From NCBI GenBank assembly GCA_963795735.1, contig CAWCIU010000018.1, positions 1,602,262 to 1,666,261 of the forward strand: DNA of 64,000 nucleotides, written 5' to 3'. The notes under the pieces are model-generated. The model worked only from the letters and a program-made list of their open reading frames with translations, had not been told where the DNA came from and did not search any database. Every line of letters starts with the position of its first letter. The stretch's first letter is position 1. Of this stretch, positions 2,098 through 32,824 are shown in pieces. This DNA comes from an uncultured Acidobacteriota bacterium (lineage in GTDB: Bacteria; Acidobacteriota; Thermoanaerobaculia; Multivoradales; UBA5704). Position numbers and translations under genes: made by a program.

Positions 2098-2811
2098 TCA
2101 AGGCAAGGGAGTTCCGAGGACGTCGGCAAGGTACAGATAAGGACCGTGGTAATCCCGCCGGACCTCGCCGTACCAATGCGCGGCGGGTCGCTTCTCGCAC
2201 AGGAAGGCTCGTTGCTCTGGTGGCAAGCTCTTCAGTTGCACCCGGAATCGGCCATCACGGGCTCTGGCGGCGACAATAGTTCCGCTGGCTGAGCTCGAGC
2301 GCGCTCGACAAGAGCTCGGATGAAGAGAGCCAAAGATTGTCACTTTGGTCCCCAAGTATAAATCTTCATGCACTTTTACATACCACGGGTCGGTGAAGTC
2401 GTACCGGATGAATCGCCGCTCGTCCGTACAGGACCCCAGCCGACCCAGGAATGCGATCCGCTCGCGCAGCTTCCTGATGACGCAGTCACGGACGGCGGCG
2501 ACGTTCTGGCAGTTGTTCCGATCCCGGAGCCAGAACCGCTCCTCCGCACGAAATTCGGTCTGGGCCGCGCCAGAGCAGCTCAGATGTTTCCATTCTGTGT
2601 TGAGCTTATAGTCCAGCCGCCCCACCTCGGCATCGGCGCACACCAGGCCTTCGACCACTCCCTCTCCGCATCCAGGACGCCAAGGGATTTCCCTGTCGGT
2701 TACGGTGGTGCTCGCGCCGGACCCGCCGCCGTCTTGCGGCTTGGCGGTCGGAACGGCGACCAGGGCGGCGACGAGAGCCATCACGGCTATGGGAAGGAAT
2801 CGTTTCATCAT
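2098..2811 (-). CDS. Secreted DUF1311 (LprI lysozyme-inhibitor-like) domain protein, 237 aa.
   Basis: This is an internal start of track ORF 2098-3054. MMKRFLPIAVMALVAALVAVPTA is a signal peptide, preceded by a GAGGAGG Shine-Dalgarno. The DUF1311-like pattern is C..A...LD..LN..W....C.....FRAEERFWLRDRNNC. Confidence 0.55.
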   Translation of the reverse strand: MMKRFLPIAVMALVAALVAVPTAKPQDGGGSGASTTVTDREIPWRPGCGEGVVEGLVCADAEVGRLDYKLNTEWKHLSCSGAAQTEFRAEERFWLRDRNNCQNVAAVRDCVIRKLRERIAFLGRLGSCTDERRFIRYDFTDPWYVKVHEDLYLGTKVTIFGSLHPSSCRARSSSASGTIVAARARDGRFRVQLKSLPPEQRAFLCEKRPAAHWYGEVRRDYHGPYLYLADVLGTPLP

Positions 2812-3005
2812 GGCCTCCTCGGCGGGAAATCGCCTTTCATGGGAGCCATCATGACGTTCATAGAAGGAGAGAGTGTGAACGGGAAGTGAGCTGCCCGGAG
2901 GAAGCGGGAGATCCATGCACGAAGCACAACGCGGCCTGCGAGGGCGGGAGCAATATCCATTCGTATGGCACCTCGTTCGGCAGTCCTCTGTATTGGAGCT
3001 GCTGC

Positions 3006-3293
3006 TTAAGGTTCTGACGCAGATAGATACTCGGCATGCTTCCTGACAGCCCAATCCTTATATTCTTCGTAGCTAATCCAACCCCATAGTCGATCTTCGC
3101 TCGAGGGATTCAAATCCGTCCAATCAAGTTTCTCCTGTAGCTGACCAAAGAACTCGTAGTCGCTGTCAGACATTGCATCCTCGGGAATGCTTTCCAAATA
3201 GAAAGTGTAATATTGGGCATGGAACTGCGCGACAGACAAACCACCTGATACGAGATCGTCTATCATCTTCATCAAAGCGTCTCTATAATCCAT
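3006..3293 (-). CDS. Small acidic cytoplasmic protein (95 aa), possibly an orphan immunity protein.
   Basis: The ORF track gives MDYRDALMKMIDDLVSGGLSVAQFHAQYYTFYLESIPEDAMSDSDYEFFGQLQEKLDWTDLNP... It lies in a low-GC islet downstream of the Rhs CT/immunity array. It has no signal peptide and a very acidic composition, which is typical of immunity proteins. This is an inference. Confidence 0.45.
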   Translation of the reverse strand: MDYRDALMKMIDDLVSGGLSVAQFHAQYYTFYLESIPEDAMSDSDYEFFGQLQEKLDWTDLNPSSEDRLWGWISYEEYKDWAVRKHAEYLSASEP

Positions 3294-3548
3294 ATAGTCT
3301 CACTTTAAAGGAATAAGGCCTCCAGATTTATCCGCATTCTATTCCCGAAGTAATGAGCGTTCTTTCGAACTTCCCAGTCCGACGTATAATAGTGGACACC
3401 CCGATCACACCCCAAGAGGGGAAGAATAGAAATAAGGATGAGAGACATCCATGTCCTACTAAGACGTCCCAAAAGCCATCTCACTTGGCCACGAAATCGT
3501 GACGATGGTGCCCTTCTTCAGATTCCGGCAGATGAGACGGCGGCCATG

Positions 3549-4013
3549 TCAAATGCCCTCTCCAAGATAGGGAAACGCAAACCAGAACAGCCATGTTGCT
3601 AAGGTGAGTGCCAGCCAGAGTACCCTCCGAAGTGGAAGTGGCCACGGTGAAGCCCACCATTGCCACCAGAAATAGCCAAGAACGAGAACGTTCACACTAA
3701 TCATTGTAACTACATGCAAAGGACCCTGGAAAGTCAAACCTCTCGAACAATCAACCGTGAAATAAACCGCGCTCAGAGCAGTAATGGCGCCCAGAAACAA
3801 CCCTAAGCAAGCTCTTCCTATACGCGGACGACTGATCACAACTCCTACAAGTACAAGAGAGGCCAACGCCGCCACCACACATGTCCATTGTGGCCAGCCA
3901 CTCGAACGCAGGAAAAACTGCGTCATAGGATATGGCGACCATAGAGTTGGAACTCTGGCCGAAACTGCCAGCAGTGACGTTACAAAGAGCACGCCCATAC
4001 TGATAACCATGGG
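3549..4013 (-). CDS. Small polytopic membrane protein with 4-5 TM segments; start uncertain.
   Basis: Track ORF 3549-4091. The hydrophobic segments include VISMGVLFVTSLLAVSA, CVVAALASLVLVGVVI, ACLGLFLGAITALSAVYF, VVTMISVNVLVLGYFWWQWW and VLWLALTLATWLFWFAF. The start is probably an internal Met (MVISMG...). It is low-GC. Confidence 0.35.
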   Translation of the reverse strand, partial: PMVISMGVLFVTSLLAVSARVPTLWSPYPMTQFFLRSSGWPQWTCVVAALASLVLVGVVISRPRIGRACLGLFLGAITALSAVYFTVDCSRGLTFQGPLHVVTMISVNVLVLGYFWWQWWASPWPLPLRRVLWLALTLATWLFWFAFPYLGEGI

Positions 4014-4094
4014 CAAGGCTGTGGTGCTAGGTGAACCTTCGACAGGATTATGATTCTTGTTATAAGTCGTTATGGGGGTGGCACCACTCACCTG

Positions 4095-4517
4095 TCACTT
4101 CGTTCCAGCTCCGAGGTCGAGGCTGGAATGGTTTTGGTCCCTCTCCTGCGAGAGCAGACGATGGTTCCGTTTTACCCCGGCAACTTTCACGGATTGAGAC
4201 TCCTCATCCCAATACAGATACCTACAGTTTTTTTTACACCAACTTTTTACCTGCATAAAATCATACGCCGTATATTCATTTGGCAACAGCCCGAACGTAC
4301 TGGTATTCCCCCGTATTTCCAGGCCGGTGACTTTTCCAAAGAAGATAACCGCCCGCAAGTATTCGTCAGAATCAGACCGACCTTCTTTAACGGCATTATC
4401 GATTATTCTCTCATTTCGCCTCCACTCTGAAAATGCTTTATCATGGGATCTACTTGCGCTACAAGCCGCTATGGCAAGCGCGACAGCAAAGAGTGCGGAA
4501 AATTTCTTTAACAACAT
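4095..4517 (-). CDS. Lipoprotein (140 aa), the predicted immunity protein for the orphan Rhs C-terminal toxin. It is a paralog of the protein encoded at 5601-5993.
   Basis: MLLKKFSALFAVALAIAACSAS contains a lipobox. It shares motifs with the 5601-5993 product (TG.EIRGN.S.FG.L.N..TA.DF..V..W....R.YWDE.S.SVKV). It lies immediately downstream of the orphan CT (4531-5493), 14 nt away. Confidence 0.6.
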   Translation of the reverse strand: MLLKKFSALFAVALAIAACSASRSHDKAFSEWRRNERIIDNAVKEGRSDSDEYLRAVIFFGKVTGLEIRGNTSTFGLLPNEYTAYDFMQVKSWCKKNCRYLYWDEESQSVKVAGVKRNHRLLSQERDQNHSSLDLGAGTK

Positions 4518-4530
4518 GGGCGACTCCTTC

Positions 4531-5493
4531 CTATTGCCGCATTATCCTTACGATGTTCCCATTATTCCAGAATATCGTCACCGTGACCGTCTGGCTTCCC
4601 CTTGCGTGTGGCGTAACCGTAGTTCCGGTTCCGTTCACCAGATTACGTTGCGTTGGCCCCCTTTGAAATCCCGAGACGGCAGATTGGGCCCCACAAGCGA
4701 TTGCATGCGCAACGGCAAACTGCCGCCCTAAATCCACGTTTATGTTTACAAGTCCCATAGTTTGTTTAACCGTCTGCTCTGCAACTTCATGCGCAAGCAA
4801 CGAAAAACTGCTTGCCACAGGCCCCTTGCCCGCCGCGGCCAGATCTTGAGTATCAATCTTCTGAGCATCATAGCTTCCGACCAAAACGCCGGAATCTCCC
4901 GTCACGAGCCCAATTGCGATTGTCTGCTTACTACCAATTGCCTGCCCAAGAATACCCGCAAACGCTTCTTGCTCCGGAGTAGCACGACCTGCTTCTCCTG
5001 TCGCAACCAGACTTGCCTTCCCGGAATCATCGATTACAAGACGTACACCATGGAGCCCCTGATTAGCTATCTTCTCAATTTCCCTGAACTGTTGAGGGCT
5101 GCCGGTAAAAACAAGGATTTCTCCACTCGGATCAATGTCAACAGATGGTGAGTTCCGAACGTAGGAATATCTATTCCAGGATTGCGGCGAGCTAGGGTCA
5201 AAGCTCATTCCTGCTGGATCCACACTCAAAAACCGCCCCGTCACCGGGCTCTCATGCCGGGCATGCATGTAATCCAGATCATCCCCCGCTCCGGCCGGGC
5301 TTGCCAGGTCTCTTTCGTGCCCGGTGAACTTCATCCGTTCGGTGTCCTGGTTGAAGGCGGTGGCTTCTTCTCCGAAGGGGTAGTAGACGTGGTAGGCGAC
5401 GCGGTCTCCCGAGGCTCTTGTGATCAGGCGCAGGGTTCCCAGGTGGTCGAGGCGGAAGTGACGCTGGCCGGTCTGCGTCTCGGCGCACGACAA
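4531..5493 (-). CDS. Orphan Rhs C-terminal cassette: the RHS repeat-associated core tail (…DPSGE) plus a variable toxin domain, with no Rhs body and no credible start codon.
   Basis: Residues 5-125 (ETQTGQRHFRLDHLGT...YHVYYPFGEEATAFNQDTERMKFTGHERDLASPAGAGDDLDYMHARHESPVTGRFLSVDP...NRYSYVRNSPSVDIDPSGE) are nearly identical to Rhs residues 1524-1644. The CT domain (about 4531-5118) is a diverged homolog of the main Rhs CT, and both carry LAHEVAEQ. Nucleotide identity of about 93% to 6665-6955 ends abruptly at about 5486. Confidence 0.7.
   Translation of the reverse strand: MSCAETQTGQRHFRLDHLGTLRLITRASGDRVAYHVYYPFGEEATAFNQDTERMKFTGHERDLASPAGAGDDLDYMHARHESPVTGRFLSVDPAGMSFDPSSPQSWNRYSYVRNSPSVDIDPSGEILVFTGSPQQFREIEKIANQGLHGVRLVIDDSGKASLVATGEAGRATPEQEAFAGILGQAIGSKQTIAIGLVTGDSGVLVGSYDAQKIDTQDLAAAGKGPVASSFSLLAHEVAEQTVKQTMGLVNINVDLGRQFAVAHAIACGAQSAVSGFQRGPTQRNLVNGTGTTVTPHARGSQTVTVTIFWNNGNIVRIMRQ
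5200..5486. repeat. Direct repeat, about 93% nucleotide identity to 6665-6955, which is the DNA encoding the conserved RHS core.
   Basis: Manual alignment of 5218-5486 against 6680-6952 gave this identity. It is reflected in the near-identical shadow ORFs 5182-5589 and 6575-9106 on the plus strand (both read ...HTQKPPRH.ALMP.MHVIQI...). The similarity falls away toward the CT-encoding side. Confidence 0.7.
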
Positions 5494-5600
5494 TTTTACC
5501 GCAATCCGAGGCTTTTCAGCTGCCTGTTAGATCCTTTCGTCTATGGCCTGTACCTTATCACCTCTTGTTGTCCGGCTCTCACACCTTAACGTTCTCTGCA

Positions 5601-5993
5601 CTACCCTCTATCGCGAACCTTCACCGATTTAGACGCCTCATCCCAGTACAATCGATCGTGATTGACAGAGTACCATGCTTGTACCTTCTTAAAATCAACT
5701 GCGGTTTCTCTATTGGCCAGCCAGCCGAAGAAACTTCCATTGCCCCTAATTTCAATACCAGTTGTTTTTTCAAAAAACTTACACGCCCGACCGAATTCCT
5801 CGACAGAATAGCCTCGACCATTAAGAGCATTGGTCACGATTTTTTCGTTCTTGCGCCAGATTTCGTCAACGTTTACTGCGGGAGTTCTCTCATGCTGGAG
5901 AGAAGGATCCGAACGATTATTGGCTTTATCGCAACCGGGCAGCAAGAACAATCCGCCAACCAAGGTAACCTTAAAAAAACAACTAATTCTCAT
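5601..5993 (-). CDS. Lipoprotein (about 130 aa), the predicted cognate immunity protein of the Rhs toxin.
   Basis: This is the internal start MRISCFFKVTLVGGLFLLPGCDK of track ORF 5601-6029, with a lipobox. Its ATG overlaps the Rhs TGA stop (ATGA), indicating translational coupling. It is paralogous to the 4095-4517 product. Confidence 0.6.
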   Translation of the reverse strand: MRISCFFKVTLVGGLFLLPGCDKANNRSDPSLQHERTPAVNVDEIWRKNEKIVTNALNGRGYSVEEFGRACKFFEKTTGIEIRGNGSFFGWLANRETAVDFKKVQAWYSVNHDRLYWDEASKSVKVRDRG

Positions 5994-8900
5994 TGGCGAA
6001 GCACTCCCGTCAAGTTTCCGTTCTGCCAAAACGTGATCACTACGATCGTATGACCGCCTTGCTCCTGTCGCGTTACAATGACTCCATTCAAGGGTCCACT
6101 TGGCGGCAAACCATTGTGGGAAGCTCCTCGATGATAGCCGGAAACTGCACTTTGAGCCGCATTTCCATAGCTATGTGCCCTGTCAAAGTCACTCCTGGTA
6201 TTAGCCAAGTGATTAAATTGCTTGAAGCTCTGCTCTGCCACCTCATGAGCTAACACAGATTGGCTACTCAATCCTGGACCTGGATTTATAGCAGTAAGAT
6301 CCTTGACATCGAGTTTGCCAGATCTATATTCGCCAAATAAGACTCCCCTATCGCCATCAACAAGCTGGATCCCAACCGTGCGCGTGTCGTTGATAGCGTG
6401 TTCCAAAACGGACTTAAGCGCAGCTTGCGCCGGAGTAGCAGCACCACCCTCTCCAGTCGTCTGCAGAGTGGCCTTACCCGAGGCATCGATCACAAGCCTG
6501 ACGCCATGGAGTCCAGAATTTGCAATGCTTTCTAGCTGACGATATTCGGCCTCTGTACCCGTAAAAACAAGCACTTGGCCAGTGGGGTCAACAGAATTCA
6601 GCGAACGATTTTGTACATACGAGTAGCGGTTGATAGATTGTGGAGACTTCGAATCGAAACTCTCTTTTGCTGTGTCCACACTCAAAAACCGCCCCGTCAC
6701 TGGGCTCTCATGCCGAGCATGCATGTAATCCAGATCGTCCCCCGCCCCTGCCGGGCTGGCAAGATCTCTCTCATGCCCGGTGAACTTCATCCGCTCGGTG
6801 TCCTGGTTGAAGGCGGTGGCTTCTTCTCCGAAGGGGTAATAGACGTGATAGGCGACGCGGTCTCCCGAGCCCCGGGTGATCAGGCGCGGGGTTCCCAGGT
6901 GGTCGAGGTGGAAGTGGCGCTGGCCGGTCTGCGTCTCGGCGGCGAGGAGAAGGCCGTCGCGGTAGAGGTAGTCCGTGCCTACGCTCCAGGTGCCGGCGTT
7001 GTTCAGGTAGTCCCGGAGAACCTTGCCGCCGAGATCCCGCACGGTCCAGTGGGAGAGGTTCCGCGCCGTGTCGTAGGACCAGATCCGCTCGTCATCAGCG
7101 GTGTAGAGATAGGCCCAGTTCTCGGCGCCGGAGACCATCTGGGTCATCTGGTTGAAATGGTCGTAGGTGTAGGACGCGCCGTTCCAGTTGGTCAGGTTGC
7201 CCGCGGCGTCGTAGACCGCGGCTCCGCTCAGGCGGTTCGTCTGCGAGCTGGTGGGCGTCGCGCGACCGCTGGTGCCGCCGATGCTCTGGAGGTTGCCGAA
7301 GGCGTCGAAGGCGTAGCTCTGCTGTTTCTGGTTGCCCGCTCCCGTAGGACCGTCGAAGAGGGTGGACGAGACCAGGCGGCTCACCGCGTCGTAGGTGAAC
7401 CAGGAGGTGCCGATCGCCTTGACGTTGCCCGCACCGTCGTAGGAATAGCTGCCCGAGTTCCAGCTCGCCCAGGGACCCGAGGCGGCGAGCGAGGAGGGGC
7501 GGCGCATCTCGTTCGGATCGTTGCCCTGGGTTTCGGTCACGCCGTTGCCGTGCGCGATCTGGCTCACCAGCAGGTTCGGATAATAAGCGATCGTCCCGTA
7601 GGTCGTCGCGCCGCTGGCGACGCCGGTCAGCAATCCTTGCGTGTAGGCGAGTTGGACGCTGCGCGCGGTATTCGGATCGGTGGCGACCGGGATGTCGAAG
7701 GTCCGGGCGAGATAGCCCGCCATCTGCGCCCGGGTGAGCGGATTTCCAGGACAGAAGTTCCCGCCGCCGCAACCGGTCATGATTCCCCGCCGCGAGACCT
7801 CGGCGATCTGCGCCGCGTCCCAGTAGGCGCAGTTGACGTCCAGGAAAGGTCCGGCGCCGGTGCAGGCCGGCGGCACGTAGCTCGTGCCCTCCTTGCTGCG
7901 CAGCAGGAAGGCCGCCATCTCCGCGTTGATCACCTGGTTGTCCGGGCAATAGCGCAGCGGGTTGGCGGCGCAGCCGGTGGTGATCCCCCGCCGGTAGATC
8001 TCTTCGATCCAGGCCGCGGCCCATTGAGTGCAGGGCACGTCGGCGAAAATGGGCGCCTGGCAGTTCGGCGCCGGCGGCGTGTAGCCGGGAGCGGAGGATG
8101 CGCGGATCAGAAACGCCGCCATTTCGGACCGAGTAATCGTGTTGTCCGGGCAGAAGCGCAACGGATTGGTGTTGCAGCCGGTAGTGACTCCAGCCGCGTA
8201 GATACCCTCGATCTCGCGCTGCGCCCAGTAGCCGACCGGCGCGTCCGCGAAGACGGCCGGCGCCGGCTGGGTGCAGCCCGCGTGGGTGCAGCGCGGGTAA
8301 TCCAGATTGCTCACCAATCCCAGGTCGTTATAGGTGAAGCCTTGAGTGAACGACTCCCCCGGCACGGTATCGGTCGTCGCCTGCGTGTCACGTTGGGAAA
8401 CCCGGCCGTCCCGGCCACCATAGGTGTAAGTCTCGGTGATCTGAACGGTGTGCGCTGCTCCGCTGAGCGCCACGTAGTTGTAGCGGCTCGCCTGCCGCAG
8501 CTTGCCCTGGCTCCAGTCGTTGGAGCCGTTGGCGCTGGCGTAGGTGAACGCCTTGAGGAGCCGGCTGGAGCCGCCTGTCTCCTGGACCTGGAAGAGCCGC
8601 TCGGCCGGGTCATAGCTGAACGTCAGATCGTTCGGACCATCGACTTTCCGCAGAGCGTGCCCGTGAGAATCGTAGCGCGGATAGCTCACCGCTCCATTCC
8701 CGGACGCTCCCTTCTCCGGATGGGTCTCCGACTGGAGCAGGCCCGCCCGGTCGTAGCTGAAGTTGCGCGTCTGGGTAACGGAAGCGGCGGTCGTCGAGAC
8801 GGAGGCGAGCCGGTTGCCCACGTCGTAGCCGTAGAAGGTGGTCACGTTCGCCCCGCCACTGCCGGAGGGCTCGGCGACCGAGGCGAGCCGGCCGTGGCGG

Positions 8901-11506
8901 TCATAGATCTCGGTCGCGGTCGCCGAGGTCTCGGACCCTTGAGCGGTCGCGATCTTCACGGTGCGGTCCACCTGCCGGACGCCGCGATAGGTCATGGCGA
9001 CGTCGTGCGCCGCGCCGTCCGGCGGCCGGATCGTTCCCGGGCGGCCGAACGCGTCGTAATTGAGAAACGTGGTCTGGTTCGAGGGCGAGCCGGCCGTCCA
9101 CTCTGAGACGGTGCTCTTGTTGCCCGCGATGTCGTAGGCCGTCTGGCGCTTCGCCGAAGTACCGTTCGGGAGAGTCTTGAACTCCTGGTAGACCCGGCCG
9201 AAAGCGTCGAAGACGATCTGGTGCACGGCGAGGATCGGCGCGGTCACGCTGCCGTTGGCCCGTTGCCGCACGATCGCGTTGGCCTGCACGCTCCCGCCGG
9301 CCGGCGTATAGACATATTCCGTCCAGCCGCCCTGGGGCGGCTTCGACCAGAGCAGCCGGCCCAGGGCGTCGTACTCGTAGTTGGTCGTCAGACCTGCGGT
9401 GTCGGCGCTCGACGAGGGCAGGCCGGTGGTCGAATCGATCCCCTGGTTGAGGACGAAGAAGTTGATCCCCGCGTACTTCGAGGTCGCCCGTACGCCGAAG
9501 GAGTAGCCATGATCGATCTCGTATTCCGGATTGGCCGGCAGGGCCACCGTGCAGAGATTGCCGGCGCCGATCCCACCCTGGGCGTCGCCGCCGTAAGACT
9601 TCTCGTTCATGACGTTTCCCGTATTCTCAAGGACGTAGACCGAGACGAGGTCCTGCGCCCCTTGTGCCGCTCCGTCCAGGCGGTGGACCCGCTTGCGCGT
9701 CACCGTCGTCGAGCCCGGCGCGTAGCAGAGCTCTGTCTGGGCCGTGGCCGCACCCTCCGAATCCGACACCGAAACCGGGGCCTCGAGCACCCAGGCCGAG
9801 CTCGACGGGAAGAGCGAGTAACCCGAGCCGGTGTTGCCCGCCGCGTTCACCGTGTACGTGCCCTGGCCGGGATTGTAATTCCCGAAATGGGTGCGGACGT
9901 TCGAGCCCGGGAAGCTTCCTTCGGTCTGCTGCGTGCGGTAGTGCCCCAGGCCGTCGAAGCCGGAGCTCACCGCGCCGCTGAAGTTGCCGCCGTCGTCGTT
10001 GTAGACCGTACGGCTGCGCAAGGGCCGGCGGTTGAGGTTGTAGATGTCCGGCGGCGAGACCGCATAGACGGGATCCCGCTCGTAGAGCACGTACTCCGAG
10101 CGCAGCAGCGCCGCCGAGGGCGAGGGGCCGTCGTAGACCTGCCGTGAGAGGTTGAGGTCCACGCCGGGAGCCACGTTCAAGGTCGTGTTGCGCGTGAACG
10201 GCAGGCTGTAGTCGTAGGTGCTCCACCCGGTGTAGCTGAGATCGATGGCGGTCGAGAAGTAGCTCACTGTCCGGTTGCCGAGCGGATCGATCACTGTCGT
10301 GGAGTGCTCGCGGCTGGTCAGGGCGTCGGGAAATCCCGGAGCGGACGTGTAGGTCCAGATTCCCAGCACGGTGCCGTTCGGATTGCGCATCGTCCGCGTC
10401 GCCACGCCGGGGTTGGTCTGCAGGTGCTTCTTGGTCGTCGAGCCCGTCGGGAAATAAACCTTTTGCCAGGTCCATTCCATCCGCCCCAGGGTCGGCAGGT
10501 TCCACGCCGTGATCTCGCCCGCGTTCTCCGTGCAGGCGTTGTCGGGCCAGCTCGGTCCCGAAGGCAAGGTGATCACATAATCGCTCGCCGTGTTCGACCA
10601 GGAGGAGCCGTCCGGCAGGCTGACGCTCGTCAGCAGCGGCACCGATACCATGCTCCCCACGCTATTCTTCTGATCCGTGTCGTTGTGCGGGCAGGCCCGG
10701 CCGATCGTCTGCACGGCATAGTTGAACTGATAGGTCGCCTTGGCGCCGGCGAAGGCCGTGAGCTCGATGCGATCCACCACCTGACCGTAGGGAGAAAGAT
10801 CGGTGCGAAAGAAGATGCGCTGCTGCCGGCCGTGAACGTCGGACAGAATCCACTGATTCGCCGTCGTTATGGAATCGATCGTCAGGCGGTTGCCGAACGG
10901 GTCCTGGATGCTCGTCGGCATGCCGTCGGCGCCGAAGGAGCGCGTCGAGCCGTCCGGAAACTCCACCAACCAGCCTCCCGACACCAGGACCTTCAGCCGC
11001 AGGTAGCTGCCGTCCCGCGTGTACTGGATGTCCGAGACCCCGGAGACCGGCGCGTCCTCGGCATCGCCGGGGTGGAGCGTCGGATAGAAGACGTGGTCGG
11101 TGCCGTTCTCGTCCTGATAGACCGGCCCCAGCGGGTAGGTGTCGTTGGCGTCGGGCACCTGGCAGGGTGGGTTCATCCGGCCCAGCGACACCCGCCAGCC
11201 CAGACCCGCGTTCGAGCATGGCGTCGGGTAGGCCTGCGTGCGGGAGAGATCGTTGGCGGGGTCCAACGGATTCGGATACTTGACCGTCTTGAACAGCCAG
11301 GGGTTCGAGTTGTAGACCAGCTTCAGGCCGTAGGAGAAGCCGCCGTTGACCGGATAGGAGCCGCCGATCGGGATGGTCAGCGTCAGGCCGTTGTTGAACA
11401 GGTTGACGCTGTCGATGTCTCCGACGTGGAAGGACTGCTCGACCGGAAACCCCGGCGCCGTGTTCGGATGGACGTCCGCCATGGCCGGAGCGGCCATGGC
11501 GCCCAC
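5990..11506 (-). CDS. Rhs/YD-repeat polymorphic toxin (1838 aa) with three internal SLH domains and a C-terminal variable toxin domain.
   Basis: Many YD repeats are present (YDALGRL, FDAFGRV, YDIAGN, NYDAFGR, YDRHGRL, YGYDVGNRL, FSYDRAGLL, YDSHGHAL, YSYDGAGN, TYDAVSRL, FDAFGNL, YDAAGN, YTYDHFNQ). The RHS core runs about 6575-6937 (HLDHLGTPRLITRGSGDRVAYHVYYPFGEE...DPTGQ). The CT toxin runs 5990-6574. The start is ambiguous: GTG at 11506 in the track, but a signal-peptide-like segment (SSRKILAAILLVGAMAAPAMA) is encoded in-frame upstream with no start codon. Confidence 0.9.
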   Translation of the reverse strand: MGAMAAPAMADVHPNTAPGFPVEQSFHVGDIDSVNLFNNGLTLTIPIGGSYPVNGGFSYGLKLVYNSNPWLFKTVKYPNPLDPANDLSRTQAYPTPCSNAGLGWRVSLGRMNPPCQVPDANDTYPLGPVYQDENGTDHVFYPTLHPGDAEDAPVSGVSDIQYTRDGSYLRLKVLVSGGWLVEFPDGSTRSFGADGMPTSIQDPFGNRLTIDSITTANQWILSDVHGRQQRIFFRTDLSPYGQVVDRIELTAFAGAKATYQFNYAVQTIGRACPHNDTDQKNSVGSMVSVPLLTSVSLPDGSSWSNTASDYVITLPSGPSWPDNACTENAGEITAWNLPTLGRMEWTWQKVYFPTGSTTKKHLQTNPGVATRTMRNPNGTVLGIWTYTSAPGFPDALTSREHSTTVIDPLGNRTVSYFSTAIDLSYTGWSTYDYSLPFTRNTTLNVAPGVDLNLSRQVYDGPSPSAALLRSEYVLYERDPVYAVSPPDIYNLNRRPLRSRTVYNDDGGNFSGAVSSGFDGLGHYRTQQTEGSFPGSNVRTHFGNYNPGQGTYTVNAAGNTGSGYSLFPSSSAWVLEAPVSVSDSEGAATAQTELCYAPGSTTVTRKRVHRLDGAAQGAQDLVSVYVLENTGNVMNEKSYGGDAQGGIGAGNLCTVALPANPEYEIDHGYSFGVRATSKYAGINFFVLNQGIDSTTGLPSSSADTAGLTTNYEYDALGRLLWSKPPQGGWTEYVYTPAGGSVQANAIVRQRANGSVTAPILAVHQIVFDAFGRVYQEFKTLPNGTSAKRQTAYDIAGNKSTVSEWTAGSPSNQTTFLNYDAFGRPGTIRPPDGAAHDVAMTYRGVRQVDRTVKIATAQGSETSATATEIYDRHGRLASVAEPSGSGGANVTTFYGYDVGNRLASVSTTAASVTQTRNFSYDRAGLLQSETHPEKGASGNGAVSYPRYDSHGHALRKVDGPNDLTFSYDPAERLFQVQETGGSSRLLKAFTYASANGSNDWSQGKLRQASRYNYVALSGAAHTVQITETYTYGGRDGRVSQRDTQATTDTVPGESFTQGFTYNDLGLVSNLDYPRCTHAGCTQPAPAVFADAPVGYWAQREIEGIYAAGVTTGCNTNPLRFCPDNTITRSEMAAFLIRASSAPGYTPPAPNCQAPIFADVPCTQWAAAWIEEIYRRGITTGCAANPLRYCPDNQVINAEMAAFLLRSKEGTSYVPPACTGAGPFLDVNCAYWDAAQIAEVSRRGIMTGCGGGNFCPGNPLTRAQMAGYLARTFDIPVATDPNTARSVQLAYTQGLLTGVASGATTYGTIAYYPNLLVSQIAHGNGVTETQGNDPNEMRRPSSLAASGPWASWNSGSYSYDGAGNVKAIGTSWFTYDAVSRLVSSTLFDGPTGAGNQKQQSYAFDAFGNLQSIGGTSGRATPTSSQTNRLSGAAVYDAAGNLTNWNGASYTYDHFNQMTQMVSGAENWAYLYTADDERIWSYDTARNLSHWTVRDLGGKVLRDYLNNAGTWSVGTDYLYRDGLLLAAETQTGQRHFHLDHLGTPRLITRGSGDRVAYHVYYPFGEEATAFNQDTERMKFTGHERDLASPAGAGDDLDYMHARHESPVTGRFLSVDTAKESFDSKSPQSINRYSYVQNRSLNSVDPTGQVLVFTGTEAEYRQLESIANSGLHGVRLVIDASGKATLQTTGEGGAATPAQAALKSVLEHAINDTRTVGIQLVDGDRGVLFGEYRSGKLDVKDLTAINPGPGLSSQSVLAHEVAEQSFKQFNHLANTRSDFDRAHSYGNAAQSAVSGYHRGASHNGLPPSGPLNGVIVTRQEQGGHTIVVITFWQNGNLTGVLRQ
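7697..8254 (-). other. Three tandem S-layer-homology (SLH)-like domains embedded in the Rhs protein at about residues 1085-1270.
   Basis: Each repeat shows FADAPVGYWAQREIEGIYAAGVTTGC...FCPDNTITRSEMAAFLIRA, then FADVPCTQWAAAWIEEIYRRGITTGC...YCPDNQVINAEMAAFLLRS, then FLDVNCAYWDAAQIAEVSRRGIMTGC...FCPGNPLTRAQMAGYLARTFDIP. These match the SLH consensus (F.DV...W....I..L...GI..G....F.P...ITRAE.A..L). Each repeat also carries extra Cys pairs. Confidence 0.6.
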
Positions 11507-12216
11507 CAGCAGGATCGCAGCGAGGATCTTGCGCGAGCTGATTGCGCCACCCCGCCCTTGTGCACCGAGATCTCCATGGTCAGCGGATCGACGACGAACC
11601 AGAGGTCGTTCCCCTTGAGCTTGGCCGGCGCGGCCGGGCTCCCCGGGAGCGGATCGAATTTGTCCAGCGCGAAGCGCAGGTGACCGTCGTTCTTGCCGTC
11701 CTCGTCCCGCGGGCCGCCGTCGCCGCCGGCGAAAGCCCAGGCACCCTCCTTGGGGCGCACCATCAGACCCATGAGATAGGGACGCTCGTCGAGGATCTCG
11801 TCAGACTTCGACCCCTCCCCCAGTCCCAGGTGCGAGGGCTTCTGCGGCTTCGCCAGCCGGTAGCCGTTCGGCGCCGCCACCACGAAATCGCCGCCGTCGA
11901 GGTCCACCGCCACCCAGAAGGAGCGCGGCGTCACGGCATGGCCGAGATCGAGGCGCGCCGTGCCATCCGCGGCGACCGTCCCGGTCTCGTAGCGCTGCGC
12001 CATCTCCCCTGAGTACTCGGCGTCGATCCGGTGCTCGACCCCGAACCAGACCACCCGATCCCCCGGCGTCAGGCCGCTCGCCACCAGTGCCGAATCCTCG
12101 AAGGCAACCTGCGGCGCCGGCTTGGCGGGTTTGCCAGGACTCCCCTGGGCAAAAGCTACGCCCGCGACGAGCAGGCCCAGCAGGAGCGTCAAAGACAGCG
12201 AACGGTCTCTTCTCAT
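11383..12216 (-). CDS. Secreted hypothetical protein. Its 3' end is uncertain and overlaps the Rhs 5' region in another frame.
   Basis: MRRDRSLSLTLLLGLLVAGVAFAQGSP is a signal peptide. The mature part is charged and Gly-rich (…PKEGAWAFAGGDGGPRDEDGKNDGHLRF…). The last 50 or so residues (ARARSSLRSCWWAPWP...) look like out-of-frame read-through of the Rhs N-terminus. Confidence 0.45.
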   Translation of the reverse strand: MRRDRSLSLTLLLGLLVAGVAFAQGSPGKPAKPAPQVAFEDSALVASGLTPGDRVVWFGVEHRIDAEYSGEMAQRYETGTVAADGTARLDLGHAVTPRSFWVAVDLDGGDFVVAAPNGYRLAKPQKPSHLGLGEGSKSDEILDERPYLMGLMVRPKEGAWAFAGGDGGPRDEDGKNDGHLRFALDKFDPLPGSPAAPAKLKGNDLWFVVDPLTMEISVHKGGVAQSARARSSLRSCWWAPWPLRPWRTSIRTRRRGFRSSSPSTSETSTASTCSTTA

Positions 12217-12507: not shown

Positions 12508-12936
12508 TCAAACCACCACAAGGTGCTCTGGAGTAGCTCCTGGGGCTGCCGACAGCGGGATGGAGTGATCGAAGGCGACGAGCCTTCCCCGATGCTCCAC
12601 GGCAAGCGCCAGAAGATAGACGTCGGTCACCTGGCGCGGCCCGTGGACATGGCTGGAGTTGATTCGGCGGTCATCGAGAAAGCTGGTGGAACAGGGCCAG
12701 AATTCGTGGTGCTCGGTGCTGGTCGCCCGGCGCAGCCGCTCGACAGCCTCGAAAGGCGAAACGGGACTTGGGTACTTGGGCTGGCTGATAATGCGGACGA
12801 ACCCGTTTTGAGTCAGAGCGCAGGATGCCCAGCCATGCTGGATTTCCCCTGAGATCCACTCTTGGGCTCGTCGATGGTCGACGTGATCGGCATCCAGCAG
12901 CGCGAGGAGCACGCTGATGTCGAGGAGCGCTCGCAT
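12508..12936 (-). CDS. vapC: Type II toxin VapC (PIN-domain ribonuclease).
   Basis: MRALLDISVLLALLDADHVDHRRAQEW... is a PIN N-terminal motif. The protein is 142 aa. Its ATG overlaps the stop of the upstream antitoxin gene (ATGA). Confidence 0.8.
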   Translation of the reverse strand: MRALLDISVLLALLDADHVDHRRAQEWISGEIQHGWASCALTQNGFVRIISQPKYPSPVSPFEAVERLRRATSTEHHEFWPCSTSFLDDRRINSSHVHGPRQVTDVYLLALAVEHRGRLVAFDHSIPLSAAPGATPEHLVVV

Positions 12937-13181
12937 CAGTCCAAGTCTTCTTCCCGCAGCTTGTTGATGAGCTCATTGGAGATCGCGCCACCACGGGGGG
13001 GCAACGGTTCGAAGCCAAAGAAGCTCTTCGGCTTCTCGACCTTGGGATCCTCCTTGTACCGATGGGTCAGCGCCTCCCGAGCGAGCTCAGACAGGAGATC
13101 TCCGGCGCTGCGCTTCTGCCGCCGCGCCCTCTCCTTGACCGCCAGCAGAACATCCTCCGCGATATCGAGCGTGGTGCGCAT
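12936..13181 (-). CDS. vapB: Type II antitoxin VapB (81 aa).
   Basis: MRTTLDIAEDVLLAVKERARRQKRSAGDLLSELAREAL is a typical VapB N-terminus. It lies directly upstream of vapC and overlaps it. Confidence 0.7.
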   Translation of the reverse strand: MRTTLDIAEDVLLAVKERARRQKRSAGDLLSELAREALTHRYKEDPKVEKPKSFFGFEPLPPRGGAISNELINKLREEDLD

Positions 13182-13439: not shown

Positions 13440-14171
13440 TCAGCCGTCTGCTGCAGGGGTCTCGTTAGCCGCTTCTAGGTCGCTCACGAGGCCATAGCCC
13501 CACTGCCTCCCCACCAACTCATGCTCGGCACGGCATTTCTCGCATGTGAACCGTGTGCCGATCTTAAGCTTCCGGTTCTCTAACAGAGTTTCATGTTCAC
13601 ACTTCATGCAACGGAAGTTAGAAGCGATTAGGCGAAATAAAATCTTACCCTCTTCGCTTTCAATGGCATAAAATTCTGCACCGCAAGACGGATTCAGATA
13701 CACAGCCTTATGACTCTTCTGTACTCCCTCTAGGTTCGCCGCTACGGGTTCGCCACACACGGAACATTGAAACTCAACCAAGCTTGCGAGTGAGCTATCA
13801 ATGCGACTCGCTACCACAGGTTCTAATTCCGCTACAACGCTATCAAGGTACTTCCGAAGTTCCTTTGGATCTCGTTGAAGCGGCGAAGACTCGGCCGGAG
13901 GCGACAGTACGTGAAGAAGGTTCCCAATTTTATTGTAACGCTTCCGAAGCCAAGACACCTTGAGACCTTTATGGTTACCTAAGCTCATCCACTTTCCCGT
14001 AGGTACTCCTGGCTCGGATTCAAACGCCACCATCATCTGGAAGTCTTGATCTGCTCCAGGCTCAAGCTCAAGGAGGGCTTTAACCGCTTGCGGAGGCTGC
14101 CAGATGGCAAGAACGCCCTTAGGCAGTCGCTTAGCATAGGTCTCCAGTTTCTGGTAAGTTACCGCCTCCAT
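13440..14171 (-). CDS. Hypothetical protein with two C-terminal zinc-ribbon-like motifs; the first gene found at the 3' end of the low-GC cassette.
   Basis: Probable start MEAVTYQKLETYAKRLPKG. The motifs are CSVCG-x20-C(GAEF) and CMKCEH-x16-CEKC. No family was recognised. The gene is low-GC. Confidence 0.5.
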   Translation of the reverse strand: MEAVTYQKLETYAKRLPKGVLAIWQPPQAVKALLELEPGADQDFQMMVAFESEPGVPTGKWMSLGNHKGLKVSWLRKRYNKIGNLLHVLSPPAESSPLQRDPKELRKYLDSVVAELEPVVASRIDSSLASLVEFQCSVCGEPVAANLEGVQKSHKAVYLNPSCGAEFYAIESEEGKILFRLIASNFRCMKCEHETLLENRKLKIGTRFTCEKCRAEHELVGRQWGYGLVSDLEAANETPAADG

Positions 14172-14372
14172 GCAAAATCGAAGTTCTAGGCAGACATAGC
14201 GCAAGACGGAATCGCTCCTCTTTCTAGGAGTTCCTTTGCGCGCTTAAGGCAACTTCTCTTATCGAAGCTCATTCAGAAGTCTCTCCTCGAGCATCTACGG
14301 CAGCAACGTTCTAGGCCTCCGCTGCGGACTATAGGGTTGGGTGCGCCGCCACATTTGCGAGGACCAGGGATT

Positions 14373-15527
14373 TCAGCGGTCAACTCGGATCCATGCTATA
14401 GGATGTTCTGAATCGGCTGAAGCATATGCTCCCTTTTTGACTATCCGTTCAACTTTCCCACTGACTGGCGCTTGTATATTGCATCCCTTCCGTAAGTTCT
14501 CCAGGAAAGCAAGCCACTGCTCCAATACACTACCGGAGAATGATCTTTCCTCTTTTCTACGATTCCAATCCGCTACTGCCAGAAGTTTTCTTTCTTTGGC
14601 GATCTTGGCCTCAGTTTCAGCCTCTTCAACAGAATCTGGAGGTACTACTCCTGCCTCCTTGAGCCTCTGATATCGGGATAAATGCTGATCGGCTCGCAAA
14701 GCCTGCAAACTCTCCACTGACTTCGCGCTCTCCGGGCTAACATCGCTTGCTCCTGGAACTTGCAAATGACGCAACTCGCCACGGGTCCTCAGAATCTCAC
14801 GATCCAGTGCCTCGCAATCCTGCTGTACAATAACCTGTCCTTGCTTGATCTGAGCGCCCTGTTTCCATGTCTCTAAAACCGTACCCCCATAGCGTGCAAA
14901 GACAGGGTACAAATCGTTACTAAGTGGGGGATAGGGAGGATTTGGAGGAGTCGGAGTAGTAATGGATGTTGATTCTGAACGGGCAACCCAGAGGACTTGG
15001 AGTCGGTCGAGAGAATTGTTCACCTGCTCCCAGCGTCGAATTTCATCCTTGCTGACACGAGTCAATGAGACCAAGGACGTACTTACCGAGAACACAGCAC
15101 CAGCGAGAAGACCCGCCCCGACAATCGGCGCGAACAGCCTAACTGCGAATTCCACTGGCGCGCCAGATCCTTTTGAGTGCTCAAGTGTGCCAAAAATCTT
15201 CTCTGCTACATTTTCAAAAAATTTTCGCTCTGGGTCTAGACCACCCAGAACATTCGTGATTACAAAGGCTAATCCCCAGACGAAGCCAATCATAATGAGG
15301 ACAGCCATACTAAAATGGGCAACGTTATAGAGGATTGCAAAGGGACCATCATCTCCGGCGAGAACTCCAAGCAGATACCTGCGAAGGCCCTGCGAGCGAG
15401 CAACTTCTTTATCCATACCTCTCGCCCATTGATGATACACCTCGAAAAAAAGGAGCCCGAAGCAGCCAACAACAACGAGGGTGATCGAACCACGCAAGCT
15501 GGACCAAAACATAGATGACTTCATCAT
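14373..15527 (-). CDS. Membrane protein with 3-4 N-terminal TM segments plus a coiled coil and a split lipoyl-like (HlyD/membrane-fusion-like) domain.
   Basis: TM segments are ITLVVVGCFGLLFFEVY, FSMAVLIMIGFVWGLAFVITNVLGG and LFAPIVGAGLLAGAVFSVSTSLVSL. The C-terminal half has YGGTVLETWKQGAQIKQGQVIVQQD, then a coiled coil, then IQAPVSGKVERIVKKGAYASADSEHPIAWI. This is the barrel-sandwich hybrid signature of HlyD-type adaptors. The gene is low-GC. Confidence 0.5.
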   Translation of the reverse strand: MMKSSMFWSSLRGSITLVVVGCFGLLFFEVYHQWARGMDKEVARSQGLRRYLLGVLAGDDGPFAILYNVAHFSMAVLIMIGFVWGLAFVITNVLGGLDPERKFFENVAEKIFGTLEHSKGSGAPVEFAVRLFAPIVGAGLLAGAVFSVSTSLVSLTRVSKDEIRRWEQVNNSLDRLQVLWVARSESTSITTPTPPNPPYPPLSNDLYPVFARYGGTVLETWKQGAQIKQGQVIVQQDCEALDREILRTRGELRHLQVPGASDVSPESAKSVESLQALRADQHLSRYQRLKEAGVVPPDSVEEAETEAKIAKERKLLAVADWNRRKEERSFSGSVLEQWLAFLENLRKGCNIQAPVSGKVERIVKKGAYASADSEHPIAWIRVDR

Positions 15528-15747
15528 CTTCTCCTTGAATTACTCCTGGACAAGTGCATAAGTAAGAAGTTGAAAGATAAAGCCGAAAAATTTGACCTGC
15601 CCAACGGGAGTGTGGCTGAGTGGCGGCGCCAGCCGTCCGCTCGAGCCTCCGGCCGCACTGGTTCTCCATGCATGCGATTGAAGCGCGATAAATGATTGTC
15701 GTCTTGATGCGAGTCCATTTCAATGGTTGCCCATGCGCAGCATATCA

Positions 15748-16344
15748 CTACTTACCAATAATCATCTTCACTATCATCGCCACGAACGAGATGCAATACG
15801 TGAAAGTGTTTAAATAATTTGGCCGCTCAGGAGTAAGCTTCAAACGTATCCATTCGGCAAGACGTAGAGGTGAGAGAGCTAATGCCATCCCGATTAGAAA
15901 TAGAAGGACCACAAGATACCCAAGCAACACGATGGGCCAAATAATGAAAAGAAGGAAAGCATCGCGAGAGCGAAAATCCTGCTCGAACCAATTGAATGGC
16001 CATGGCGGAAGGCGATGCGGGAAATCTTCTCTCCACCAGCGGCAAAATTTTCTGCCAACGCGCTGGGTCGGCAAGTATTGCAGTCTAAGCAGCGGCACAA
16101 TAAAAACGAGGCTAAGGAGGGTACCTGCTTCTCCAAGAGCGCGCAAGAAAAGGGATAATGATAGAAACATTACGATCAAACTTGTAAAAGTTAGGGTGAT
16201 TAACGCCAATACCTTCGAAGCCTTCCAAGTGGCCGCCCCTACTCTCAATAGCCATTCTTCTATTTTTCGGGCACGCTTCTCCCCTATAATCGTACTGATT
16301 CCGAAGATGGGGCCCAGCGTAAGGAGAACGTCCAGGATAGCCAT
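15748..16344 (-). CDS. Polytopic membrane protein (198 aa, about 5 TM segments) of unknown function; the first gene of the low-GC cassette in transcription order.
   Basis: The track gives MAILDVLLTLGPIFGISTIIGEKRARKIEEWLL…, followed by four more hydrophobic helices. An AT-rich putative promoter region lies at 16345-16500. Confidence 0.5.
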   Translation of the reverse strand: MAILDVLLTLGPIFGISTIIGEKRARKIEEWLLRVGAATWKASKVLALITLTFTSLIVMFLSLSLFLRALGEAGTLLSLVFIVPLLRLQYLPTQRVGRKFCRWWREDFPHRLPPWPFNWFEQDFRSRDAFLLFIIWPIVLLGYLVVLLFLIGMALALSPLRLAEWIRLKLTPERPNYLNTFTYCISFVAMIVKMIIGK

Positions 16345-32400: not shown

Positions 32401-32824
32401 CGCCCTGGCCGACACCCAGAATCCCGAGCTGTCCGGCCTGGTGCTCTCCCAGGTGGATGCCGGGGGCCGGCCTCGCGAGGGCTTCCTGGGGCTTTCGGAC
32501 ATCTACGACCTCGACCTCGACGCCGACCTAGTGGTCCTCTCCGGCTGCCGGACCGCGCTCGGCAAGGAGGTCCGCGGCGAGGGGTTAATGGGCCTGACCC
32601 GCGGCTTCCAATATGCCGGCGTACCCCGGGTGGTGGCGAGCCTCTGGCGGGTGCAGGACCGGGCCACAGCGGAGCTGATGACCCGCTTCTACCGCGCGAT
32701 GTGGCACGAAAAACTCTCGCCGGCAGCGGCCCTGCGCGAGGCCCAGAGATCGCTCCGCCGCGAGCCTCGCTATAGAAATCCCTATTTATGGGCCGGCTTC
32801 ATGCTCCAGGGCGACTGGCGTTGA
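29452..32824 (+). CDS. TPR-repeat plus CHAT (caspase-like peptidase) domain protein; one gene with an apparent frameshift at about 30130.
   Basis: Track ORFs 29452-30273 (signal-peptide-like N-terminus, then the TPR start) and 30209-32824 (many TPRs such as LNNMAVVYRLLGDWQEALRLY, then the CHAT region with the His/Cys dyad context …ILHFATHA… and …VVLSGCRTALG…). The second frame is open upstream back to about 30125 (…NKLQREANTFAWLASIYSNTQGAKKAREALETSRSQW). Confidence 0.7.

Follow-up and report, generated by a model that had tools for sequence, protein, structure and literature searches.

A probable Sec-exported Rhs toxin locus with a second, orphan tip in an uncultured Acidobacteriota bacterium

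How would an Rhs protein be delivered without a type VI secretion system (T6SS), what would its tip act on, and why does a second tip lie directly behind the first? These questions are raised by a locus in a 64,000-nucleotide (nt) stretch of DNA, hereafter the window, from an uncultured Acidobacteriota bacterium (Thermoanaerobaculia; Multivoradales; UBA5704; GenBank assembly GCA_963795735.1, contig CAWCIU010000018.1, positions 1,602,262 to 1,666,261 of the forward strand). A large gene with YD/RHS repeats, the main Rhs gene, ends there in a C-terminal domain (CT1) and is followed by the gene of a predicted lipoprotein (Imm1). Behind it stands an orphan cassette made of a fragment of the Rhs core, a second C-terminal domain (CT2) and a second predicted lipoprotein (Imm2) (Table 1). 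We consider it probable that the locus encodes an Rhs polymorphic toxin exported by Sec and independent of T6SS, with a displaced orphan tip, and that the CT family acts in the cell envelope. The arrangement of main Rhs, immunity gene and orphan is classic, so the layout of the locus alone adds little to what textbooks hold. What is new is an uncharacterised family of toxin and immunity proteins on an Acidobacteriota Rhs that has a Sec signal, bears S-layer-homology (SLH) repeats and is not of the T6SS type.

Table 1. Features of the Rhs locus (positions in the window; aa, amino acids; GC3, GC content at third codon positions)
Feature	Coordinates	Strand	Basis
Main Rhs gene, YD/RHS repeats and Rhs-associated core, 1838 aa	5990..11506	-	Mechanical open reading frame (ORF)
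Actual 5′ end of the Rhs gene, start of Sec signal peptide	11507..11542	-	In-frame translation, orthologue comparison
Three tandem SLH repeats, aa 1086-1270	7697..8251	-	PF00395, E = 1.3e-9
Upstream secreted-protein gene, no Pfam family	11383..12216	-	ORF list, orthologue synteny
DPTGQ and CT1, toxin-position domain, aa 1640-1838	5993..6589	-	Family profile, AlphaFold2 model
Imm1, putative cognate immunity protein, 130-aa predicted lipoprotein (LLPGC)	5601..5993	-	ORF, homologues, synteny
3′ end of the Rhs core repeated in the orphan, aa 1523-1639	6590..6941	-	Identity and GC3 profiles (~0.9 to ~0.6)
Fragment of the Rhs core in the orphan, 122 codons, AETQTGQRHF...DPSGE	5119..5485	-	DNA 90-95% identical to 6702-6941
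CT2, orphan toxin-position domain, 195 aa and stop	4531..5118	-	49-51% identical to CT1, same conserved residues
Imm2, putative CT2 immunity protein, 140-aa predicted lipoprotein (LAIAAC)	4095..4517	-	ORF, homologues

The Rhs carrier and its 5′ end

Pfam and NCBIfam scans matched the main Rhs protein to RHS_repeat (PF05593, E = 4e-18) and TIGR01643 (E = 6e-6), and the Rhs-associated core model TIGR03696 covered aa 1556-1644 (E = 2.8e-12). The protein runs to ...NSVDPTGQ, with DPTGQ at aa 1640-1644, and continues into a CT of 194 aa. These results bear out an earlier reading of the same DNA (the sequence-only reading), which had seen an Rhs gene ending in DPTGQ plus a CT. The pentapeptide matches the DPxG(L) cleavage motif that closes Rhs cores, and autoproteolysis is predicted from this match; the Rhs shell would encapsulate an enzyme-like CT1 of ~195 aa and free it after the DPxG core motif.

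Translation in frame upstream of the listed ORF gave a Sec signal peptide, (M/I)SSRKILAAILLVGAMAAPAMA, followed by DVHPNT. Orthologues of the main Rhs were present in two Acidobacteriota metagenome-assembled genomes (MAGs), L007 (55% identity) and L009 (66%), and both have clear Sec signal peptides at their N-termini; that of L007 begins MIRRGLLLLPFLLSALAAPLAADDHPNT, its Sec signal peptide being MIRRGLLLLPFLLSALAAPLA, followed by ADDHPNT. The Rhs protein contains no PAAR, VgrG or other T6SS component, and none turned up in 20 neighbouring ORFs. Because the features of T6SS effectors were lacking and the orthologues carry a Sec signal, we placed the Rhs in the Sec-type class. The triple SLH block lies inside the Rhs repeat region. 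It is found in L007 (59% identical) and is exactly missing from L009, where its flanks abut at 4899/4900. A wall-anchoring SLH module within an Rhs shell is unusual. The gene immediately upstream of Rhs encodes a secreted protein of ~225-277 aa. Among its counterparts 5′ of Rhs, that of L009 is 76% identical, that of L007 38% and that of another related locus, L002, 34%; the protein may serve this Rhs lineage as its dedicated accessory or in its export.

Comparison with the orthologues revealed a change at the start codon that the sequence-only reading had missed: the ancestral ATG of Rhs is ATC in the window (11542-11540, minus strand). At 11539-11544 on the minus strand, the window reads CAATCA and L009 reads CAATGA (CAATCAGC and CAATGAGC, respectively), and in L009 the TGA of the upstream gene overlaps the Rhs ATG. 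One substitution thus turns both the Rhs ATG into ATC and the upstream TGA into TCA, and because its TGA is mutated the upstream ORF is longer by ~52 codons, to 11383. The ATC could reflect an error in the consensus, a start codon that is non-canonical and weak, or true decay by pseudogenisation. Two points tell here against the reading that we prefer: with an ATC start the main Rhs may be poorly translated or untranslated, and a Sec-exported, SLH-bearing Rhs would still need a route into the periplasm of a neighbour.

The start codon bears on the best-surviving alternative, in which the locus is decaying, the Rhs is silent through loss of its start, and selection mainly keeps the two immunity genes against the toxins of neighbours. 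The substitution that removed the Rhs ATG together with the upstream stop would agree with this, as would two related loci. In L002 (6790-8534) the Rhs is cut to an N-terminal remnant that is followed by tandem domains of the Imm family, apparently a deletion that lost the toxin and retained immunity, and L001 has an Rhs 3′ end whose CT is a different one, followed by three tandem Imm copies that no CT matches. However, the Rhs frame of the window is intact over 1838 codons, with a host-like GC3 of 0.82, and the ATC could be an error of a single base in the consensus. Weak initiation at this codon could also still occur; ATC can initiate translation, at low efficiency. We regard decay as unlikely, although it is a contender to be taken seriously.

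A toxin-position domain family and its lipoprotein partners

A word-indexed homologue search with CT1 alone gave no match. With E <= 1e-3 as the limit, an exhaustive HMMER search with a profile of CT1 and CT2 retrieved 462 representative clusters, of which 184 lay at <= 1e-10 and 26 at <= 1e-30. In the 69 full-length matches the domain ends a few residues from its protein's C-terminus, bar one exception. Among 107 proteins that extend N-terminally, 81 have the D[P..]xG of Rhs in front of the CT and ~9 have the QRK linker of eCIS_core/DUF4157. The Pfam architectures of 64 longer members comprised RHS_repeat (25), eCIS_core (8), DUF6443 (2), SpvB/TcdB_mid (1) and SLH (1), and PAAR occurred in none of the 64. 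Because the CT is always positioned at the tip, and on several scaffolds, it is a genuine polymorphic-toxin C-terminal domain that has been shuffled between delivery systems. The family is widespread and yet named in no database that we searched. Nothing recurred across 55 aligned members in Pfam (E <= 1) or PHROGs (E <= 0.1), NCBIfam and Pfam scans assigned no family to CT1, CT2, Imm1, Imm2 or the downstream ORFs, and the sole annotation of one NCBI member (Haliangium) is 'eCIS core domain-containing protein'. The sequence-only reading had not recognised the domain, and in our hands it gave no significant match in Pfam, NCBIfam, PHROGs, PDB profiles or Foldseek.

The stop codon of Rhs and the start codon of Imm1 overlap in CAATGA (ATG 5993-5991, TGA 5992-5990), as had been read from the letters. 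Imm1 begins MRISCFFKVTLVGGLFLLPGC and carries the lipobox ...LFLLPGC, in which, by inspection, the Pro at -2 is atypical. A profile of Imm1 and Imm2 found 16 homologues, none of them named and none with a Pfam domain, and the resulting alignment of 18 members matched no Pfam or PDB profile. We searched for related loci with a profile of 10 closer CT sequences and scanned all fetched loci with the hidden Markov models (HMMs) of CT and Imm; five of the loci came from GTDB genomes, all of them Acidobacteriota or Thermoanaerobaculia MAGs. An Imm-family gene lies directly 3′ of the CT in L003, L004, L007, L008, L009 and L010, and twice in the window. Considering this synteny together with the CT-less Imm arrays of L001 and L002, the family behaves as immunity genes do, which supports the proposal that the downstream lipoproteins are cognate immunity proteins. 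Judging from sequence and gene order, the CT is probably toxic and probably neutralised by Imm. Translationally coupled to Rhs, lipoprotein Imm1 would shield producing and kin cells on the membrane's periplasmic face.

Export signals recur among these partners. By inspection, 15 of the 18 Imm homologues have a signal peptide and a Cys; the homologue of L007 has a membrane anchor and that of L009 a signal without Cys. In loci of two other lineages, L014 (low GC; FLCASC) and L015 (CLAGC), the gene that overlaps the CT stop also encodes a lipoprotein, and these lipoproteins are barely related or unrelated to the Imm family. The localisation of immunity proteins tracks the site at which their toxins act, and lipoprotein immunities are rare: Imm65 is the only one in the survey of Zhang et al. 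2012 (PMC3482391). Export signals on immunity proteins, even on unrelated ones, therefore support an extracytoplasmic target for the CT, which we hold to be fairly likely. They also support the sequence-only reading, which had taken the lipoboxes to imply action in the periplasm or envelope.

Two observations count against this location. Behind a distant relative of the CT (L005/L006) comes a protein of 239 aa that lacks a signal peptide. Members of the family are also carried by eCIS and Tc-like scaffolds, whose cargo usually ends up in a cytoplasm. The corresponding alternative places the action of the CT in the cytoplasm, where nucleic acids or nucleotides could be its target, and has the lipoproteins protect only during Sec export or play no role in immunity. 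Its supporters would point to the eCIS_core and SpvB/TcdB-type carriers, which inject into the cytoplasm, to the signal-less downstream gene of L005 and to weak profile matches (E ~0.3) to Rhs deaminase toxins (BaDTF3 / YD repeat protein). The last of these we followed and rejected. The matches among PDB profiles (9pw1, 9pw2, 9k3e and 9pw0) reached only E = 0.29-0.56 over 58 residues, and the CT family has no HxE, PCxxC or conserved Cys at the aligned positions, so that a link to BaDTF3-like deaminases does not hold. Moreover, the export signal of the downstream gene is kept in at least 10 loci of three lineages, even among unrelated sequences, and no nuclease or other Pfam family recurred among the 55 aligned members at E <= 1. 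Action in the cytoplasm thus appears improbable.

What kind of enzyme might the CT be? AlphaFold2 modelled CT1 with a pLDDT of 96.6 and a pTM of 0.92 from an alignment of 55 sequences, 25-51% identical to CT1; this alignment was used for the CT model, a two-sequence alignment having given a pLDDT of 39. The model runs beta-alpha-beta-beta-alpha-beta, followed by a short strand and a helix that bear I-D94-x-x-D97 (residues counted from the D of DPTGQ). Two long helices then bear H115-E116-x-x-E119-Q120-x-x-K-Q124 and A-H139 and are followed by a four-stranded meander at the C-terminus; H115 and E119 share one predicted helix, and H139 is on the next. Across the 55 sequences D94, D97, E119 and H139 never vary, and conservation is at least 93% at H115, E116, Q120 and Q124. 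The pair of helices with HExxE...H resembles the active site of zincins, with Glu in place of the second His. On the strength of this motif and of the modelled helix geometry, the CT may be a metal-dependent hydrolase, which we take as the likeliest chemistry though at somewhat less than even odds; the residues of D-x-x-D, H-E-x-x-E-Q and A-H would then form its active site, directed at a target in the cell envelope.

Several results speak against the assignment. It is the motif that carries it, and the Glu at the position of the second zincin His is found in 55 of 55 sequences, so the family has no HExxH. Foldseek searches of the CT model against PDB and BFVD found no zincin or other fold, the best hit being no better than E = 0.2 with a TM of ~0.2, and neither PDB profiles nor Foldseek detected similarity to solved zincins. 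Homology to the zincin-like DUF4157/eCIS_core domain was tried and rejected, since hhalign places HExxE on HExxH with a probability of only 3.6%. A literature search for HEXXE returned only papers on CLCA1, in which it is an apparent slip for HEXXH (zinc on His156 and His160).

Origin of the orphan cassette

The orphan ORF (4531-5493, minus strand, 320 aa) begins ~110 nt behind Imm1. Its listed start is a TTG at 5493, 8 nt before the homology boundary and without a Shine-Dalgarno sequence, and no promoter or terminator signal in a scan of 2800-6200 rose above the shuffled expectation. Imm2 follows after a gap of 13 nt; it contains MLLKKFSALFAVALAIAAC and has a GAAGGAG Shine-Dalgarno 7 nt upstream. 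Aligned as DNA, the two cassettes start to match at 6941/5485, and successive 60-nt windows are 95, 90, 93, 90, 75, 55, 58, 73 and 71% identical. Identity is thus ~92% over ~240 nt of core and decays within the tip. The restart within the core that the sequence-only reading described stands, as does its abrupt stop at ~5486 (5485 by alignment), while the main-gene range that it gave, 6665-6955, is ~15 nt too long upstream. It was also right that the two CTs are diverged homologues, with LAHEVAEQ and FW.NGN common to both, and that a paralogous lipoprotein follows the orphan: Imm1 and Imm2 are 46% identical, and a lipobox is seen in each. HMM scores (E = 1e-66 to 1e-71 for CT1 and CT2, ~1e-79 to 1e-81 for Imm1 and Imm2) place these relations far beyond chance.

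Composition changes towards the 3′ end of the core. The GC3 of host genes is ~0.9, at a host GC of ~70%, and that of the Rhs core is 0.87-0.97. Over 6710-6800 of the main gene and 5224-5313 of the orphan it drops to 0.3-0.57, and it stays low through Imm1 and Imm2 and on to ~3000. Both tips are therefore compositionally foreign to the host. The closest relative of Imm1 is P0156 (81%) and that of Imm2 is P0157 (86%), compared with 52% over 81 aa between Imm1 and Imm2 in the same comparison; by sequence, the two belong to different subfamilies. Taken together, the abrupt boundary, the step of identity within one frame and the closer Imm relatives elsewhere favour the replacement of a cassette over a local duplication. 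Most likely, as far as sequences record such a history, the tip was replaced by recombination in the core and the old tip was pushed downstream, in line with the origin by recombination in the core that the sequence-only reading had proposed. A related cassette of low GC would have entered the 3′ core by recombination and displaced the earlier tip, which would now be the orphan. The orphan would keep Imm2 useful and could be redeployed by recombination through the ~250-nt core, which is ~92% identical. In enterobacterial Rhs, orphan rhs-CT/rhsI modules are redeployed by recombination. Orphan fragments or second modules also occur in the related loci L003, L007, L011 and L014. At 881-3850 of L014, a low-GC, Bacteroidota-like contig, a CT-family toxin and a lipoprotein are followed by a second, orphan piece of Rhs core that has another CT and a lipoprotein of its own.

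Could the cassette instead have arisen in place, as a tandem duplication of a unit of ~1.45 kb whose CT and immunity genes then diversified while selection or gene conversion kept the core similar? The units are colinear throughout, with offsets that the repeat finder showed to be constant at 1456 nt in core and CT and at 1434 nt in the immunity gene. CT1 and CT2 are mutual best matches among representatives at 50% identity (49%, the next being 47%), and both tips are equally low in GC. Yet the separate subfamilies of Imm1 and Imm2 would mean that they diverged before they met in this locus, and the step from ~92% to 55-73% identity inside one frame is a classic sign of core recombination. Duplication in place is accordingly a poor prospect beside displacement of an older tip.

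That the orphan is an artefact of assembly, a collapsed or duplicated repeat, can practically be dismissed: a repeat of ~250 nt is all that could have misled an assembler, the copies are 5-10% apart at their closest and differ in ~50% of CT amino acids, and Logan contigs of run ERR11523670 match both copies and the junction between Imm1 and the orphan at 100%. Contig L013 coincides with window 5339-6794, which takes in CT1, Imm1, the spacer and the core of the orphan, and L012 coincides with 2934-5251, which takes in CT2, Imm2 and sequence downstream. The two break within the repeated core, as short-read graphs do at repeats. With the junction and both copies in independent contigs, and the copies at least 5-10% apart, there is no assembly duplication; support for a single copy, named beforehand as an observation that could refute the orphan, was not what these contigs showed.

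The low-GC island continues beyond Imm2. An ORF at 3549-4091 (minus strand), 3 nt past the Imm2 stop, encodes 180 aa with at least three predicted transmembrane segments, and a 95-aa acidic protein is encoded at 3006-3293 (minus strand). For neither was there a family, or a counterpart in the related loci, and both may be further orphan immunity genes. The adjoining secreted protein at 2098-3054 (minus strand) has a weak match to LprI (lysozyme inhibitor, PF07007, E = 2e-4).

Related systems, neighbouring genes and meaning

Among known systems, the carrier recalls WapA of B. subtilis, a Sec-exported, wall-anchored YD-repeat toxin with N-terminal wall-binding repeats and CTs that are cytoplasmic tRNases. 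Both are T6SS-independent YD/Rhs proteins with a signal peptide, wall-binding repeats and a polymorphic CT with its immunity gene. Here, by contrast, the SLH repeats lie within the Rhs repeat region and the target is apparently extracytoplasmic. With the Rhs of enterobacteria (E. coli, Salmonella, Serratia) the locus shares a YD shell, the DPxG core end, a low-GC tip and an overlapping immunity gene (PMC3482391, PMC10539506), besides a downstream 5′-truncated core with an alternative CT and immunity gene and, in related loci, CT-less immunity arrays. It departs from them in having neither PAAR nor VgrG nor a T6SS context, in its N-terminal Sec signal and internal triple SLH block, in its Acidobacteriota host, in immunity proteins that are lipoproteins and not cytoplasmic, and in CT and immunity families that are unnamed.

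For the toxin and its partner, VgrG2b/PA0261 of P. aeruginosa and Tox-JAB-1/Imm65 of Bacteroidetes would be the closest functional analogues, and no homology was found to either. VgrG2b is likewise a putative periplasmic metal-dependent hydrolase toxin with a lipoprotein immunity (PMC6899460), but it has a canonical HEXXH zincin on a T6SS spike, whereas here HExxE...H stands on an Rhs carrier. Tox-JAB-1 is an RHS toxin of the Sec-type ('T2SS', type II secretion system) class with a lipoprotein immunity (PMC3482391); unlike it, the CT lacks the JAB motifs (NxxxE, HxH, S, D), and neither partner has a Pfam Tox or Imm match. PT6 (WP_078255899.1) is an unannotated 85-aa Rhs/DUF4157 toxin that is toxic only in the periplasm, with filamentation (Nachmias et al., bioRxiv 10.1101/2021.10.19.465003). 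It resembles the CT in its Rhs and DUF4157/eCIS scaffolds, its lack of annotation and its periplasmic action, which for the CT we infer. It differs in size, 85 aa compared with ~195, and the comparison, made by description only, is a lead. An 85-aa fragment of the CT family, P0131, was considered as PT6; it is a protein from a JGI metagenome and not that of Moraxella.

Elsewhere in the window, a second low-GC island at 13440-16344 (minus strand; ~47-51% GC compared with ~70% in the host) holds ORFs of 254, 384 and 198 aa without a convincing family. Beside this island, a PIN-domain gene (12508-12936) and a small gene upstream of it (12936-13181) form a VapBC-like pair. A large TPR-CHAT protein (30209-32824, plus strand; CHAT E = 9e-70) is unrelated to the Rhs locus.

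What does the locus mean for the biology of these bacteria? The CT belongs to an unnamed toxin family of 462 clusters, and its invariant acidic and His residues are directly testable. Immunity by lipoproteins, rare among polymorphic toxins, points to a target in the periplasm or envelope. How Rhs toxins are delivered without a T6SS becomes a question with this carrier, which has a Sec signal and SLH repeats and comes from Acidobacteriota, a soil phylum that has been little studied. The most far-reaching reading is that the CT founds a class of new-fold envelope metalloenzyme toxins (HExxE...H with DxxD), neutralised by lipoproteins and delivered independently of T6SS by a Sec-exported Rhs anchored through SLH repeats; as a whole, we think it rather doubtful. 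If the enzymology were solved, the family could reveal an envelope target or a catalytic solution that is new, and if the far-reaching reading as a whole were true, the locus would represent a contact-dependent delivery route not yet described in diderms.

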